From Octopus vulgaris (Eukaryota): DNA of 64,000 bases. The stretch covers positions 58,094,001 through 58,158,000 of the forward strand of contig OX597830.1 of the NCBI GenBank assembly GCA_951406725.2, given 5' to 3'. Numbering within the stretch: position 1 is the stretch's first letter; each line of letters starts with the position of its first letter. Below the pieces are notes generated by a model. The model was not told the DNA's origin, made no database searches, and worked only from the letters and a program-made list of their open reading frames with translations. Position numbers and translations under genes: made by a program. Of the stretch, positions 10,829 to 61,596 are shown one piece after another.

Positions 10829-10943
10829 TGCTTACAACACCTAAGTTTTCAGTGGTCTCACCCGTCTAAGTACCAACTCGGTACGACGTTGCTTAACTCC
10901 GGTCATCAGATAGAACCGGTGCATTCAACGTGATATGGCCATA
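10829..10943 (-). pseudogene. 5S rRNA pseudogene
   Basis: Minus strand reads TATGGCCATATCACGTTGAATGCACCGGTTCT..GAGTTAAGCAACGTCG..GTACTTAGACGGGTGAGACC..GGTGTTGTAAGCA, collinear with metazoan 5S; solitary, mutated, 5' end abuts (TA)n. Confidence 0.85.
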
Positions 10944-11424
10944 TATATATATATATATGGAAAGCGGATAAAAAAAAGAAATATTTTTTATCGACTTTCC
11001 ATGCTGGGTTCAACGGATCGACAGAGTCTGAATCAGTACTTATTAGGAGGCACTGCTCTCCCAGTCGAAGCAGACGACTATATTTTGTACGAATCATTTA
11101 TGGCCTGGGGTTTACCGCTGGATGGCCTTCCAAACACCAACAAATTTACAGAGTATACTCAATGCATTTTTTTTCTGGGTGTGAGCACTGGAAAAGTAGC
11201 CATGTTCTCGACGAGACGAAAAGAATCCCCTTGATACCATGTCTCTGCTTGTTCATTAATCCCTTTAGAGAATATTCTGGATGGATTTATAGAGGCATAT
11301 AGTGCCCTGTACCACAAATATCTGGGAGTCCTTACCATTCTGCAACATGTTTGTTCTCTTAGGGTGACGTGACTGATGGGGGAGCAAGAAATTAGTGGTA
11401 GACAAGGAATGAAAGAGGTGTGTG

Positions 11425-22314: not shown

Positions 22315-22788
22315 AAACATGACGTGGCCAATGACAGTGCCGCCTGATTGGCACTCGTGCCAGTGGAACGTTAAAAGCACACGAGAGCGTGATCGTTGCC
22401 AGGGCCATGGATTGGCTCCCATGCCGGTGACATGTAAAAAACACCATTTGAGTGTGATCGTTGCCAGCATCGCCTTACCGGCACGTGAAAAACAACATTT
22501 GAGCGTGGTCATCGCCAGTGCCGCCGGACTGGCTCCTGTGCAGGTAGCACGTAAAAAACACCTTTTGAGCATGGTTGTTGCCAGAACTGCCTGATGCCTT
22601 CGTGCCGGTGGCACATAAAAGCATCCACTATACTCTCAGAGTGGTTGGCATTAGGAAGGACATCCAGCTCTAGAAACTCCTGCCAGATCAGATTGCGCTT
22701 GGTGCATCTTTCTGGCTCACCAATCCTCAGTCAAACCGTCCAACCCATGCCAGCATGGAAAGCAGACGTTAAATGATGATGAAGATGA
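22315..22788 (+). mobile_element. RTE 3'-UTR-only copy with internal GGCACGTAAAAA tandem units and (GAT)n tail
   Basis: Matches 2020-2522; other copies at ~27215-27612, 31915-32221, 33230-33615, 35625-35805, 38640-38825, 52470-52891, 50200-50320 (-), 61075-61325 (-). Confidence 0.85.
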
Positions 22789-25818: not shown

Positions 25819-26581
25819 GTAAGTATTTAATTGTTTTTTAAACCAGCCTTGTAACCATTGTAAATCTTTTTCTTAAGCTCTGTGCTCTGGGGCATTCAAC
25901 TCCTTAACAAACCAATTGAGATAAATTACAAAACTGGAGAAAACTGGTGAGGGTCTGCATCAGTCACAAATAATCCAAAAGGAAGTGTGGTAGTTAAAAT
26001 AGATGTAATTACCATGAGGGTAGGGAGAGGTCTGTTAGTTTAGGCTCAGATTCTTCATTGAGGAAAAGCAGAACGTGTTGTGTGCTTCAGGTGTAAATTA
26101 CCTGAGTTTGGGTGGCTTTCAGTCCTCAGTTGAAATGTTTCTGTTTACTTTATTAATCCTGTGCGAGGAAAGATCACAGTTTCCAATATTCTAAATGTGT
26201 TGTTTTCTAAGGAAAACATTTCTTGTATCAGAGAATAAAAGGTGATTCCTCAGCAAGTTGGTTTTGATTCTCAGGCAAAACTCTTCCTTTTGTTTCTCTT
26301 CTTTAAATTTGCAGCTTTATGTTTAGGTAAATTGTAATTGATCTTTACATTCTGAATTTGAAAAGGAAATTCTATCTCAATTGTTTATTCTGTGATGCTT
26401 GTCTAAATGTTTTAATTTTGTCTAAACTGTTTATTATTTGAGTAAAGACTGCAATAAGGGGACCGCACCTCAGTGGCTGTGTGGCATTTAAATCGTTAAG
26501 CTTTAATTTTCACAAGTTCTGTGTTATTACATCTCTGAGAATTGTACACCATATCAGCTAAATCATCCCAACTGAAGAACA

Positions 26582-27076
26582 TTATTTACATTTGACAGAT
26601 ATTTGTCCTCATTTTGTTTGTTGTTAACACATTTCGGCTGATATATCCTCCAGCCTTCATCGGGTGTCTTGGGGAAATTTTGAACCTGGGTTCTCATTAC
26701 TAAGGTTTTTTTGATGTTGTTGTTATTATTATTATTATTCAGGTCACTGCCTGGAATTGAATTCGGAATCTTGAGGTTAGTAGCCTGCTCTCTTAACCAC
26801 TACGCCATATGCCTGTGGCATAGTGGTTAAGAGAACAGGCGACTAACCCCAAGATTCTGAGTTCAAATCCAAGCAGTGACCTGAATAATAATAATAACAA
26901 CATCAAAAAATACCTTAGGAATGAGAAGCCAGGTTCAAAATTTCCCCAAGACACCCGATGAAGACTGGAGGATATATCAGCCGAAATGTTGTGTTAACAA
27001 CAAACAAGATGAGGACAAATATCCATCAAATGTAAATAATGTACATAATTTCTCATGTCTTAAATATAGAACTGTA
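26582..27076. mobile_element. Palindromic tRNA-head/hammerhead element, copy A (longest)
   Basis: ~230-bp inverted arms meeting at ~26807-26816; A box TGGCATAGTGG 26816, B box GAGTTCAAATCC 26859; mutated hammerhead core CCGATGA..GAAA at 26955-26986; TSD TGAAGAACA at 26573-26581 and 27077-27085. Confidence 0.85.
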
Positions 27077-28029
27077 TGAAGAACACTTCTTAGAATGTAT
27101 GAAATGTCTCTATTTTCAGCTCTGTTTACTTCAAGCAAAAAAAAAAACACAAAAAACATGGGAAAGCGGATGTGAAAATAGGAAGAATATATTTGATAGT
27201 AAAATTGTTTTATATTGGTGGCACATAAAAAGAATCTTTTGAGTGTTGGGCCTCATGGAGGCAATGTCGCCGATGTTGGTGTCGTGTAACTGGCACCTGT
27301 GGCAGTGGTGTGTAAAAAGCACCTTTTGATAGTGTGGGCCTCACAAAAGCAATGACAAATGACCGAGACCTTTGTCAGTGTGCTGTGAAATTGTAATTGT
27401 GGCAGGTACTGGTGTCTCACAACTGGCACTTGTACCGGTGGCATGTAAAAGCACCCATTACACTCTTGGAGTGGTTGGCATTAGGAAGGGCATCCATCTG
27501 TAGAAACCCTGCCAAATCAGTCAGGAGTCTGGTGCAGCCCCTTCACTTACCAGCCCTGTCAAACTGTCCAAACCATGGACAATGGACATTAAATGATGAT
27601 GGTGATGATGATTGAGAAAAGAAACTACACAATTGAATCTTTAAATGTAACACAGTGGGGAGTTGAGTGATTATTGTTTGGCTATCGGTAAAGCATTTTA
27701 ATCAGCCAAAGGTTCTGTTGTTGTTTGAACCCAGATCAACAAGTTGTGACTGTTCCCTTTTTTTTAGAGTATCTAGGACTACACTATCTAATGTGTCTGT
27801 TTTTAAAAACTCTTTAGTGTCTGAATTGAAAGGCATTTGGTTGCAGTTTCTAGCAGATCAAGTGACCACAGCATTTCCCTTGTTGGTTCAAGCTTCCATT
27901 GTGATGATAGTAACAGGGCTTTCATTACAGGGTTTTGGTACTTTACATTAGAACAATAGACACAATTCACTTGGGAATGTATTCATCATTAATAACTGAC
28001 CTTTTCCTCCTCCTTTTTCTTTTCTGTAG

Positions 28030-31744: not shown

Positions 31745-32450
31745 GGCATTGGCATGGCTGTGTGGTAAGGAGCTTGCTTCCCAACTACATGGTTCTGGGT
31801 TCAGTCCTGCATGCCACCTTGAGTGAGTGTCTCCTACTGTAGCCTCAGGCTGACCAAAGCCTTGTGAGTGGATTTCGTAGATGGAAACTGAAAGAAGCCT
31901 CTGTGTGTACTTCAGTCAAATGAAATCATTGTTGTGGCCAATGCCAGTACCACCTGACTGGCACTTGTGCCTGTGGCATGTAAAAGTCACCATTTGAGTA
32001 TGGTTGATGCCAGTGCCACCTGACTGGTCCTGTGCCTGTGGCACATAAAAAGCACCCACTATACTCTCAGAGTGGTTGGCATTAGGAAGGGCATTCAGAT
32101 GTAGAAACCTTGCTAGATCAGATTGGAGTCTGGTGCAGCCTTCTGGCCTTGCCAGTCCCCAGTCAAACCGTCCAACCCATGCCAGCATGGAAAGTGGACG
32201 TTAAACGACGATGATGATGATGTGTTTCTTTGTGTCTGTTTGTCCTCCCCACCACCACTTGACAACCGGTGCTGATGTGTTTAGATCCCTATAACTTAGC
32301 GATTCAGCAAAAGAGACCGATAGGATATGTACTCGGCTCTTACAAAAAAAAAAAAAGAAAATAAGATCTGTAGTTAATTCCTTTGACTAAAAATTCTTCA
32401 CTGTGGTGCCCCAGCATGACCACAGTCTAATGACTGAAACAAGTAAAAGA
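31745..32450 (+). mobile_element. SINE family A split by an RTE 3'-UTR copy (31915-32221)
   Basis: SINE head and core to ~31905, RTE tail ending (GAT)n, SINE 3' body resumes ~32222. Confidence 0.8.
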
Positions 32451-32603
32451 ATATTGTTTTTTTTTTTTCTTTCTGCCCATTGGATAACAGCGAGGAGATC
32501 CGATTGGGGATTAGTCCAGTTTCCTACCCTGATGACAACCTTCAGAAGCTTTGTCATCTGTGAAAGTTCTAATGTTGCTGTGTTTGATGACATCAATGAT
32601 ATT

Positions 32604-32771
32604 CCATTTCTATATTTAAGAAATGTGGAATTATGTACATTATTTTCATTTGACGGATATTTGTCCTCATCTTGTTTGTTGTTAATGTTTCGGCTGATAT
32701 ACCCTCCAGCCGAAATGTTGTGTTAACAACAAACAAGATGAGGACAAATATCTGTCCATTCTAAATAATGT
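32604..32771. mobile_element. Palindromic tRNA-head/hammerhead element, copy B (centre deleted)
   Basis: Inverted arms joined at CAGCC; 12-bp TSD ATCAATGATATT at 32592-32603 and 32772-32783. Confidence 0.85.
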
Positions 32772-34431
32772 ATCAATGATATTAATGTAAATAATGAAGA
32801 GGAGTGGGCCCACTGCAGTGCCTTGTAGGACTCCACTGATGACTCTTACCGAGCTTGATCAAAGACCATCGCACATTCAAGGTTCTGTGCATCAGAAAAC
32901 ATTCAACCCACTTTCCTAGTTTCTTTCAGACTCCAATGTTGGATGGTCTCTTTTGTAGTATGCTGTGGTCAGCTATGTTGAAGGTCTTGTTGAAGTCAAG
33001 ATATGTGACATCTGCATTGGAGCCCTCTCTCAGGTCCTTCAGGATGTCATCAAAATAATGCAGGATTTGTGTTGGGGTATCTCTGCCATTGCAGAAACCA
33101 TACAGGTTGGGAATAAGCAGGCTGTTATTTCCCGAAAAGTTGCTCGAGACCTCATCACACTCTCAAATAATTTGTTGTTGTTGTTGATGTTGATGTTGAT
33201 GATGATGATGATGATGATTGTGTGTGTATGAGAAAACATGTGGAAGGAGTAGTAGACCCAGGAAGATGTGGGACAAAGTGGTGAGAAAGGATCTTCAGGT
33301 GTTGGGCTTCACAGAGGGGACAACAGGGGGCCAAGACTCCTGGCAGTTTGCTGTGCTTTAGAAGACATGTCAAACTAAATAAAATCATGGTTGCCTTTGC
33401 TTCCAGGCATGACCCCTTGCATCCTTCTTCAGCTGAGCGTTCCTAGTCTTGTGGGCTTGAGGGTGCCACATAAACACACCCACGTTGGTGCTGCATAAAA
33501 GCACCCAGTAGACTCTGTAAAGTGGTCGGTGTTAGGAAGGGCTTCCAGCTGTAGAAACCAAGCCAAATTTGACCTGGCTGCATGGAAAATGGATGTTAAA
33601 GGATGATGATGATGAGGAGGAGGAGGAGAAGGATAAAATGTAGTGTGTGTTGAAAAATGTCAATAATTCAAATATGCTTATTAAAATTTGAGTCTGGGGT
33701 TTGGACAAAGAATTTTATCTGTTCTGGAGTGGTCATCAAGATGGTTCACCACCTGCTGTTTTGAATCTGTGTGTGAATGTTTAAACAATGGATAAATGAG
33801 TTTTGGGAAGGTTCAATAAACAGCTGACGTTCCTCTCTCTCTCTCTCTCACGTGCACACACAAAGCAATTTACACAATAAACTGACTATTTTCGAGAAAT
33901 TCCAGCTGAAGGTACTAAAAGAGTGTTATCATCATCTTCATCATCACCATTTAATGTTTTTCATGCTGGCCTGTGTTGGATGGTTTGATAGGGATGGGTG
34001 AGCCAGAGGACTGTGCCTGGCTCTTCTGCTTTGGTTCTGTAGTCTTGTGGTTTGTATGAAAAATCCACGTTATTGTCAGCTCTCTTTTTATTCATCAATC
34101 AATTAATCAATCATGGAGCTTTAAGAAAAAAAATGTTACCATACAAACTAATAATTATCCTTAAAAAAAAACATATATTGAATTAAACTCAGTCTTCCTC
34201 AAGTAAACTGTCTTTCTAGCAGTTACTACTACCTGAATTGGCATTAATTCATTAAGACTATTTTATCAGTTTGTCTTATCACCGACCTGGCCAATTTCTC
34301 TGAAAAGTTTCCTGTGAGATTTTAGGGAGATTTACTAAGTGATATCTTGACTGATATTATTGCCATCTGTTAAGTAATAAAATTAGATGTCATATCACTG
34401 CATTTAATCATCTCATATATATATATATATA

Positions 34432-43645: not shown

Positions 43646-43761
43646 ATTTATTCCAGATTTTTTTCAATGAGTCTAATTTTCATTGATGAGCTGGTATATA
43701 GAAATGGCTATTAAGGAAGGATAGGAAAATATTAGATTTATAAGCCCTAAAATTCACTCCA

Positions 43762-44022
43762 TAATTGCCCACAGGCATATGGCATAGTGGTTAAAAGCAT
43801 GGGCTACTAACCCCAAGATAATAATAATAATAATAATAATAATATCGAAAAATACCTTAGGAATGAGAACCCAGGTTTTGAAATTTCCCCAAGACACCTG
43901 ATGAAGGCTGGAGGGTATATCAGCCGAAACGTTGTGTTAACAACAAACAAGATGAGGACAAATATCCGTCAAATGTAAATAATGTACATAATTCCTCATC
44001 TCTCAAATATATATACAACTGT
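43762..44022 (+). mobile_element. tRNA-head/hammerhead element, copy C (single arm, B box deleted, ribozyme core intact)
   Basis: CACAGGCATATGGCATAGTGGTTAA head, (AAT)n, then the same tail as the right arm of copy A. Confidence 0.85.
43893..43938 (+). ncRNA. Minimal type I hammerhead ribozyme (Penelope-like-element type)
   Basis: Stem I GACAC/GTGTT; core CTGATGA; extra A; stem II GGCTG-10 nt loop-CAGCC; GAAA; palindromic stem III AACGTT; NUH triplet GTT with predicted cleavage after 43933. Confidence 0.75.
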
Positions 44023-50514: not shown

Positions 50515-50825
50515 CGGATACAACGAAGGGGGTTCCAGTTGATCTGATTGAGGGAGCAGCTGCTCGTGAAATTCACATGCAAGTGGCTGAGTACTCCACA
50601 GACACATGCATCCTTAATGTAGTTCCCAGGGAGATTCCAGTGTGACACAGAATGGGACAAGGCTGGCCCCCTTTGTATTACAGGTACAGCTCATTTTTAC
50701 CAGCTGAGTGGACTGAAGCAACGTGAAATAAAGTGTCTTGCTCAAGGACACAACATGCTGCCAGGAATTGAACTCGTGACCTTATGATCATGAGCAGAAT
50801 ACCCTAACCACTAAGCCATGTGCCT
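50515..50825 (-). mobile_element. tRNA-SINE family C
   Basis: Minus strand TGGCTTAGTGGTTAG A box, GAGTTCAATTCC B box, GTGTCCTTGAGCAAGACACTT core-like motif, CAGTCCACTCAGCTGG..AAATGAG central motif. Confidence 0.8.
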
Positions 50826-50912
50826 GCACCCCATTAATGTTGGCCTCCGATCGCTCTGAAGGAAGCCTAGAGTTTCTGTTATTGCTTAAGCTTTCTGTGT
50901 TTCTCTTTGCAG

Positions 50913-52414: not shown

Positions 52415-53249
52415 GTTAAAAGGTGATATACCAAATGCGAAATAAATTCTTAATTTATTGGAGCCCATTTAAGAGTACCCTTCAATCATTGGGCAATAAA
52501 CTGTGCTTGCAAAGACCTGTTGAGGCAAGTGAAGTCGTTGTCTTGGCTGATGACAGTATCACCTGATTGACACCTGTGCTGGTAGCGTGTAAAAAGCACT
52601 ATTCAAGCGTGGTCAATGCCAGTGCCACCTCACTGGTCCTGTGCTGGTGGCACGTAAAAAGCACCATTTGAACGTAGTCGATACCAGTATCATCTGACTG
52701 GCCCTCATGTTGGTGGTACGTAAAAAGCACCCACTACACTCTTGGAGAGTGGTTGGTGTTGGGAAGGGCATCCAGCTGTAGAAACTTTGCCAGATCGAAT
52801 TAGAGCCTGGTGCAGCCTTCTGGCTTGCCAGCCCTCAGTCAAACTGTCCAACCCATGCCAGCATGGAAAGTGGACGTTAAACGACGATGATCCCTCTAAA
52901 AAAAAAAAAAAGTGAAAGAAAACCTAGTGGCAATTGTTTGTGACTTTCAGTGCGAAGGGGAGGTAATTCCAAGCAAAAGATTTCTCAAGTTAATTAACAG
53001 ACTGAGAGAAAGAGCAGTCTGGTCTTTGCAGGTTGATAATAATTAATTGCCAAAGTACAGTGAAATTGAATTCGGAGCCATGGGATTGCAAAGCAAACTG
53101 CTTAACTACACATTCAGGCTTGTGCATGTCTTATTGAAATAATAGTTTTTGTGATATTAATTAGGGTTATCGTCCATCTTCACAATTCAACAAACTTTCC
53201 AGCATCAACATCTTTGTGACTTTTGTTTTTCATTCTTTTTTTCTTCCAG

Positions 53250-59925: not shown

Positions 59926-61359
59926 CCTGGATCTTTTGACACTTGAGCTTGGCTTGCTCTACAGTGGAACCATTATTCTAGCTTGTATGTAGCATTCCAT
60001 AAAATTATTTAGTCAGGAGGATAATCCTTCAGCATCTCATTGCTTCTTCAAAATGTATGTTTTTGTTTTCATTATTTTTTTGCAAGAATAAGTCATAATT
60101 TGCTATCTTAATAGCCAAACATCTTAATCAAATCAACTGACATTTACCGTTCCTGACTTTTGAAGCGTGAAAGACAATTTCAAAAGTTAGAAAGTTAAAC
60201 AGCATTGATTGATGTGAAGTTGTTTACCATTTTTGTAAGCATCTTCTGAGATTTTACCATATTGTTATCCAAAATGAGCCAAACAAGGGAGGCCTCTAGA
60301 GGTGGCCATTCAACCTGTTATAAACAGCAATCACATTTCCTTCAAATCATTTAAAAAACAAAAAAGAACATTCTTATATACACACTGCTTGAATAAAGGG
60401 GGACATAGTTCTGCTCATTCGAAGCCGGCTGGGGACTTCACCACAACAACATTTTGACAAGGGAGCTTCTGTGATTGCTTGACTTACTAGAAATAGCAAT
60501 CAAGTTTCCTTTAAATCACACTTTGATGTCTTAATGAAAATATCCGGGTGGTCAAGAGTGGTCTGCTTGACCAGTGTTGATCTAGACCAAAACAGCAAAG
60601 AAAATTGTTTGCCAACAAAAGGACTTCTATTCATTGTTCATCATGTTTAGTGGAGCAACCAAATCTTTTTAATGGTTCAATGTCTTTGAAATGAGAAGAA
60701 TATGTGTTTAACACTTTTGTTACCATATTTTGGATGGAATATTCTGCTTTTATTGTTTTCAATTATTAAAATAATGAGAAATTTAGTGAAATAACTTTGT
60801 CATTATCAGGCCATTGTTTGGAACTAAATTAATACAAAAGTTTTATGGAAGGTTTTAATTTTGATCACTTTGACACAAAGAATTTCTATCATAGAACCAA
60901 GAGCAGTGTTGGGCAGGTCAATATCGAAAAGGTTAATTCTCAAATTTTTGGATGTTTTAACCTATAATAAAATTTCTCTTCAATTTCATGACTAGTTATC
61001 ATAATAATGTCTCTTAGCAATATCTGTGGCTTGTTGGAGAAAAGAATTCCTTGACATATTCTCCTTTTAGTTTCCTTTTTCTTCTTTGGATTTCCTCCTC
61101 ATCCTCTTCATTTAACATCCGTTTTCCATGCTGGCATGGGTTGGACAGTTTGACAGGAGCTGGCAGACCACAGGGCTGCACCAGACTCCAGTCATCTGTT
61201 TCAGCATGGTTTCTATGGCTGGATGCCCTTCCTAGCTTCAACCACTTTCATGTTTACTGGGTGCTTTCCATGTGGCACCAGCTTTTAACATGGCACTGGC
61301 ATGGGTGCTTTTTACGTGGTGCCACATTTAAATCTTTATACAAAATACTTTATTTATAT

Positions 61360-61568
61360 TATTTACATTATTTACATTTGACGGATATTTGTCCTCTTCT
61401 CATTTGTTGTTAACACAACGTTTCAGCTGATGAACCTTCCAGCCATCATCATGATGAAGGCTGGAAGGTATACCAGCTGAAACATTGTGGTAGCAACAAA
61501 CGAGATGAGGACAAATATCTGTCAAATGGAAATAATGTACATAATTCCTCATCTCTTAAATATAGAAC
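61360..61568. mobile_element. Palindromic tRNA-head/hammerhead element, copy D (centre deleted)
   Basis: Inverted arms joined at TCATCA-TGATGA; 14-bp TSD TACTTTATTTATAT at 61346-61359 and 61569-61582. Confidence 0.85.
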
Positions 61569-61596
61569 TACTTTATTTATATATTTTTTTTTCCAG

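Follow-up and report, generated by a model that had tools for sequence, protein, structure and literature searches.

The palindrome at positions 26582–27076 of the window (the whole 64-kb stretch of DNA that was analysed) raises the question of whether its arms form a repeat family of their own or belong to a larger element. The original prediction had taken them for a separate, non-coding and non-autonomous family, with a tRNA-like head carrying A and B boxes and a hammerhead ribozyme in each arm, mobilised in trans by a Penelope-like element (PLE). The head-to-head arrangement of this copy 1 was borne out, with an arm identity of 89.7% over 233 columns, and so was the head, but the arms themselves are almost certainly, judging from what flanks them genome-wide, the pseudo-LTRs of a PLE that encodes a reverse transcriptase (RT) and a GIY-YIG endonuclease. 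Counting the first T of the A box as +1, they map to −10..+227 and +1..+261 of this element.

The left arm, which has no tail (26582–26818, minus strand), has its A box at 26797–26807 and its B box, with one mismatch, at 26753–26762. In the right arm, on the plus strand, the A box (26816–26826) opens a head that aligns to host tRNA-Arg, the B box (26861–26870) lies 45 nt past the A-box start, and an (AAT)n/(AAC)n tract (26883–26904), highly variable in length among copies, leads from the head to the start codon. The arm is not non-coding, since the ATG at 26921 opens the first 52 codons of the PLE open reading frame (ORF; 26921–27076), which overlap both a minimal type I hammerhead (26950–26995; core mutated in copy 1, predicted cut after 26990) and the PLE “tail” of about 33 bp (27044–27076). 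This tail, where RNA reads end at two equivalent positions, is the one-arm extension of about 30 bp that had been predicted, and it is found on the right arm only. The whole is bounded by a 9-bp target-site duplication (TSD; 26573–26581 and 27077–27085). Both arms show CCGATGA (U4 changed to C) and GAAATG, the left-arm hammerhead having in addition lost its cleavage triplet, and two uncommon variants are common to both arms, which fits copying from a single template, or gene conversion later.

Four copies of one structure had been expected in the window, and pieces of the repeat do lie at four sites, but two full arms are seen in copy 1 alone. Copy 2 (32605–32772; 12-bp TSD at 32592–32603 and 32772–32783) and copy 4 (61358–61569; 14-bp TSD at 61346–61359 and 61569–61582) are short palindromes that start within the hammerhead and have no head, centred at stem II and in the hammerhead core, respectively. 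The direct repeats of 9, 12 and 14 bp were thus as described. Copy 3 (43686–44011, plus strand) is a single 5′-truncated PLE copy, consisting of the ORF end (stop codon 43741–43743), a short spacer, a head remnant (A box 43780–43790, B box deleted), an intact hammerhead (43893–43938) and the tail; a TSD was looked for at this copy and none was found. As a separate observation, position +141 in the hammerhead core (window 61451) is a repeated truncation or junction point that was also met in loci L024, L042, L047 and L053, and in L053 a short microhomology to the 5′ end of the element explains the junction.

The assignment of the arm to an ORF-bearing PLE is based on its two neighbours, as it is joined to the 3′ end of the ORF upstream and to the ORF N-terminus downstream, in the order head, (AAT)n, start codon, hammerhead, tail, rest of the ORF, stop, a spacer of about 24 nt and the next head. 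The upstream reach of copy 3, to 43686, holds the last codons of the ORF. With the ORF protein as the sole query, the genome gave 150 scored matches, and 29 of the 30 loci fetched ran into the head or arm (one of the 30 being the query's own locus and five lying on one contig with common flanks), as did all 12 longer stretches, one of which repeats an earlier locus. RT-thumb and GIY-YIG coding sequence was found upstream of several arms, the tail–ORF junction was matched across in 40 of 40 scored places, and in locus L166 the head, hammerhead, tail and ORF were read as one frame. The ORF N-terminus was 39% identical to an 847-aa relative over 194 aa (E 3e-34), in a match that covers the peptide encoded by the hammerhead. 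The search for a PLE ORF that the original prediction had proposed gave an RT and GIY-YIG ORF contiguous with the arm; the PLE relation held, while the separate family gave way to the PLE's own pseudo-LTR.

The RT is of the PLE type, with DKG and YVDD motifs and an RVT_1 match (E 2.4e-10), telomerase RT also appearing weakly among the profile matches (E 0.015). At the C-terminus, GIY-YIG endonuclease motifs with CCHH were recognised and Atlas gave 0.96 to GIY-YIG clusters; a Pfam scan of the ORF did not detect the GIY-YIG domain, and no Zn-finger linker between RT and endonuclease, a Penelope/Poseidon trait, was visible in the ORF inspected. The closest relatives of the protein are 53–68% identical, and viral contigs contained no relative. 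Two further observations were made at these loci: the same insertion with common flanks occurs several times on contig C31 of G000 (L062, L063, L067, L068 and L081), which places it in a large block that is duplicated or arranged in tandem, and L074:2628–3362 is a fragment of a second, distinct PLE family adjoining a copy of the present one.

Much of this architecture has been published. An inverted 5′-truncated copy and a one-sided tail of 30–40 bp are general PLE features (Craig 2021, PMC8557442), and Arkhipova (2013, PMC3846280) described inverted pseudo-LTRs of about 200 bp, TSDs of 8–10 bp, a 31-bp tail encoding the first ORF residues, and palindromic junctions that were read as self-priming. 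The present element resembles the EN+ PLEs of the Penelope/Poseidon type in its single ORF of RT with C-terminal GIY-YIG (PMC3846280, PMC8557442), in a pseudo-LTR of about 200–270 bp that holds the ORF start, with the 30–40 bp tail on one side, and in its inverted 5′-truncated copies, partial tandems, two internal RT start sites and TSDs, given as 8–10 bp for PLEs. Truncation at the 5′ end, inverted arms, partial tandems and variable TSDs were all met in the loci examined. The palindrome, the one-sided extension, the minimal hammerhead and the TSDs are therefore already known PLE features; the unusual part is that the PLE begins with a tRNA-derived sequence, likely its promoter, whereas the promoters described for EN+ PLEs in the text available to us are Inr/DPE or TATA/Inr-like (PMC2377424, PMC3846280).

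The hammerhead predicted in each arm was present as a minimal type I core with stems I and II and an NUH site, but it was intact in only one of seven window arms, that of copy 3. Stems I and II were paired in 97% of 169 cells versus 16–57% in slid controls, and no compensatory base changes were seen in the hammerhead; such an absence of covariation is what copies decaying neutrally would show. Folding gave the hammerhead as expected for copy 3 (z −1.7) and did not for copy 1 (z 0.06). The anticipated Rfam hammerhead match did not materialise: Rfam searches of the window (E≤1) and of a single good copy (E≤10) reported neither hammerhead nor tRNA. Cervera and de la Peña (2014, PMC4209133) defined the minimal hammerhead and noted opposite-strand pairs 100–700 bp apart; their PLE hammerheads share with ours the extra nucleotide after A9, the G10.1–C11.1 pair, the palindromic 15.2–16.2 positions and a 5-bp stem I, and in what the source describes nothing substantial differs, stem II being 5 bp here. 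The ribozyme would be active only in dimeric form and may not be needed; cleavage was not needed in vitro for the element studied by Frangieh (2024, PMC11167929). Beside this, a 3-nt in-frame deletion of the cleavage triplet recurs, at window 26635–26640 in the left arm of copy 1 and in eight loci (L004, L010, L019, L022, L038, L114, L151 and L159). In several palindromes it affects one arm only, mostly the tail-less one, in a sampling biased to intact tail arms, and it could represent slippage or the footprint of cleavage and rejoining.

Pieces of the element were found in 8 of 60 ten-kb stretches taken at arbitrary round-number coordinates, or about 13 per Mb, which over a genome of 2.8 Gb would amount to roughly 37,000 insertions (Poisson range 16,000–74,000); the density in the window, with four copies in 64 kb, is above average. 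One of the eight random-stretch matches reached the ORF. The family looks old and decayed, because the short copies are mostly 80–98% identical to the majority sequence and none of the loci read had an intact ORF. At their 3′ side, copies end at two positions, +223–235 (+228) or +253–261 (about +259), and the same two positions are where RNA reads and contigs depart from the element. Among 30 loci selected by the tail, 16 had a second, inverted arm, in keeping with the predicted retrotransposition and integration with an inverted arm. TSDs of 10–15 bp lay at the copy ends in 6 of the 14 distinct loci examined and about 20 bp away in another, so that TSD length, as in the window, varies and is not fixed.

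The 5′ ends converge on the head. In the tail-selected set, 14 of the 30 ended at −13..+11, 13 earlier and three past the head, the true ends being uncertain for four of the 13 because these fall in expanded AAT. Nineteen of 20 head-selected loci (out of 40 scored, with a query beginning at −5) began at −6..−14 and one ran upstream; in the 300 nt fetched, 16 of the 20 went on into the PLE body. Nine head-to-ORF copies, picked because the match reached the head, comprised six beginning at −14..+1, two tandem copies and one cut inside the head. Copies most often stop at the head, which thus marks the 5′ end of the whole PLE unit. At this boundary the depth of RNA reads dropped by about 2-fold and that of contigs by more, mismatches to the reference copy contributing to the drop. 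Directly before the head is a GC hairpin, whose loop was flipped in 2 of the 20 head-selected copies, and one junction showed a CAT microhomology.

A mechanism can be proposed from these ends. The RNA would start around G(−12), which lies 13 nt upstream of the A box, and the RT would start inside it at two tail positions, as it does in vitro for the anole PLE, where initiation takes place at two internal sites that flank the tail and requires RNA beyond them (PMC11167929). Copying back to the RNA 5′ end would yield one arm of about 270 nt that lacks the ORF, and the small GC hairpin at the RNA end, or short microhomologies, might prime a second, inverted arm. Nicks by the GIY-YIG endonuclease would then give TSDs of 9–15 bp, and ORF-length copies would require a tandem or circular template. 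Internal RT start and fold-back priming would in this way produce short arms with no separate SINE lineage.

The tRNA origin of the head was supported by global alignment to host tRNA-Arg, which scored 16 and 15 where none of 300 shuffles exceeded 11; the alignment has no offset and matches 48 of 76 columns, and the Arg isotype is tentative because the comparison comprised only 33 host tRNA genes of seven amino-acid types. The A and B boxes match the type 2 promoter consensus and stand 45 nt apart, as in a tRNA gene, while the cloverleaf stems are eroded, with only 2 of 7 pairs left in the acceptor stem and 3 of 5 in the T stem. ARAGORN reported no tRNA in the window at default settings and called the head only at 70% of threshold. 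On the evidence of these motifs and of the 5′ ends, the balance tips slightly towards the head being an internal RNA polymerase III (Pol III) promoter that sets the RNA start. The majority sense strand (2,898 nt, with a depth of only 1–5 in parts) has no T4 run and 30 A4 runs. In its 2,220-nt coding part 2.8 T4 runs are expected by synonymous shuffles (P 0.036) and 2.1 by dinucleotide shuffles (P 0.11). G4 runs are absent as well, and a 735-nt piece of another PLE is likewise without T4. The absence of T4 would permit Pol III read-through and is hardly an argument for Pol III.

RNA data, i.e., three raw runs and one contig set, were aligned to one copy of 91% identity; the libraries are fragmented and 150-nt, and their host species may differ from that of the window. 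The family accounted for 10,920 of 12.9 M, 8,493 of 12.0 M and 7,716 of 11.5 M records, with equal strands and with 75–77% of reads running into unlike sequence in the three runs. These reads are host read-through. No pile-up of RNA starts or ends was seen in the three runs, including at the NUH site, where the original prediction had suggested looking for RNA ends; a short Pol III RNA would be lost in such libraries. Distant PLE relatives in metagenomes (80 loci, 28–46% identity) showed a loose A/B-box pattern in 8 of 80, and ARAGORN found no tRNA in the 60 of them scanned, but it also misses the present head. One of these relatives, checked singly, has T4 runs in the matched ORF stretch. L239 (with an identical match in L240) was considered as a headed relative and rejected, its A/B-box pattern lying outside any pseudo-LTR.

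Several readings can be weighed against these observations. That an autonomous PLE captured a tRNA gene as its promoter, is transcribed by Pol III end to end and sheds SINE-like palindromes is rather doubtful as a complete account; in its favour, short and ORF-bearing copies alike begin with the head, and Pol III terminators are absent from the full 2.9-kb sense strand. Pol III RNA is uncapped and poorly translated, which counts against a Pol III promoter role of the head. The main rival, a serious possibility though short of an even chance, is an ordinary PLE whose tRNA-like segment rides along as a passenger, derived from an old SINE insertion that became fixed within the pseudo-LTR. The PLE's RNA would then be made by Pol II or read-through and its ends at −12 by fold-back of the GC hairpin. 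It is the main rival because rotifer PLEs have palindromic ends and Drosophila Penelope an Inr/DPE promoter, which is internal and LINE-like (PMC2377424). The hairpin right before the head, with its loop flipped in 2 of 20 copies, fits such fold-back, and the 5′ pile-up may be hairpin-set, since rotifer PLEs show defined palindromic pseudo-LTR 5′ ends and self-priming in a source whose available text mentions no tRNA (PMC3846280). The read-through origin of the RNA reads and the likeness of head plus (AAT)n to a simple SINE favour a passenger too. Yet a start at −7..−13 is likewise seen in copies whose neighbour is a host microsatellite or an arm with a break at another point, 16 of 20 head-selected copies enter the PLE body, so that an abundant free SINE bearing this head was not seen, and the boxes fit the promoter consensus while the stems are eroded, a pattern that was argued to indicate promoter function in Helenus (PMC10886601).

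It is improbable that the short copies are an independent non-autonomous SINE-like family in which Pol III transcribes the solo arms and the PLE mobilises them in trans. Short copies do outnumber ORF copies, as the one in eight random-stretch matches reaching the ORF attests, and a solo arm with tail contains the boxes and both RT start sites. However, the arm is colinear with, and about equally diverged as, the ORF-linked pseudo-LTRs, an informal look noticed no variants specific to short copies, and the anole PLE needs RNA about 55 nt past the distal RT start (PMC11167929), which solo arms would lack. A SINE is also expected to be non-autonomous, to end in a simple-repeat tail at its 3′ side and to have a LINE as partner, whereas this arm lies within an ORF-bearing unit and its (AAT)n is internal. 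A MITE, a fold-back DNA transposon or an assembly artefact, which the long inverted arms could suggest, is extremely improbable given the variable TSDs, the 5′ truncation, the RT ORF linkage, the 14 of 30 tail-selected loci with no second arm by BLAST and the presence of opposite-strand joints in raw RNA reads; a MITE or DNA transposon is refuted by the ORF linkage (29 of 30 loci), the variable TSDs and the continuity of the N-terminus.

The reading of the head as a Pol III promoter has its nearest precedent in the TRIMp3 elements Cassandra, Helenus and Ajax, where a small-RNA-derived Pol III promoter likewise sits in a terminal repeat, with boxes kept and RNA structure lost, an origin by SINE insertion into the repeat being proposed there (PMC10886601). 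Unlike the present element, these are non-autonomous LTR elements with PBS/PPT and 4–5 bp TSDs; here the head is on the ORF-bearing PLE itself, and Kojima (2024) argued that the autonomous partners of TRIMp3 need Pol II (PMC10886601). With tRNA SINEs (definition in PMC3531059) the family shares the tRNA-derived 5′ head and short high-copy insertions, but in place of their 3′ simple-repeat tail, which is absent here, it has a PLE ORF body and is often palindromic. Non-LTR retrozymes are also type I hammerhead units from PLE pseudo-LTRs; they form head-to-tail arrays and are said in the available text to be promoterless, in contrast to the single or inverted units with A/B boxes seen here (bioRxiv 10.64898/2026.07.22.740005; PMC7761336). 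Arrays of short hammerhead monomers were absent from 60 arm-selected loci (some fetched twice) and from 60 random stretches. Octopus OK, OR1 and OR2 (a 1994 paper) and schistosome SM-alpha (a 1989 paper) are reportedly comparable tRNA-SINEs, the comparison being by description and not by sequence.

No PLE with a tRNA-derived head was found in the literature searched. A 2026 octopus repeat annotation listed 30 recently active Penelope families without giving their structure in the text available (PMC13282606); its repeat library, Repbase or Dfam may already include the present family. The PLE cycle is poorly understood, and a family at roughly tens of thousands of copies, with its 3′ ends sharply defined at two positions and its 5′ end at one, makes the model of internal initiation and self-priming readable from a single genome. 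Should the head work as a Pol III promoter, the trick of Cassandra and Helenus would extend to an autonomous element, contrary to the Pol II expectation, and one way in which SINE-like progeny arise from a PLE would be shown. Repeat-annotation pipelines are likely to divide such an element among “SINE/tRNA”, “MITE” and “Penelope” entries.

Other repeats were observed in the window. A different tRNA-headed repeat (50700–50826, minus strand) has A- and B-box-like motifs and a body unrelated to the PLE. A 5S rRNA-like sequence at 10829–10946 (minus strand; Rfam 53.9 bits, above cut-off), followed by a tail that resembles the repeat end at 32400–32450, is probably a 5S-headed SINE and not a 5S gene. 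Further abundant dispersed repeats lie at 2104–2361, 22429–22607, 31975–32036 and 52584–52710, and also at 61100–61270, among them one with internal units of about 62 bp and one family of about 200 bp with about ten window matches. Finally, a 26-bp minisatellite extends for about 1.8 kb from 40534, in about 59 registers of ~90% identity.
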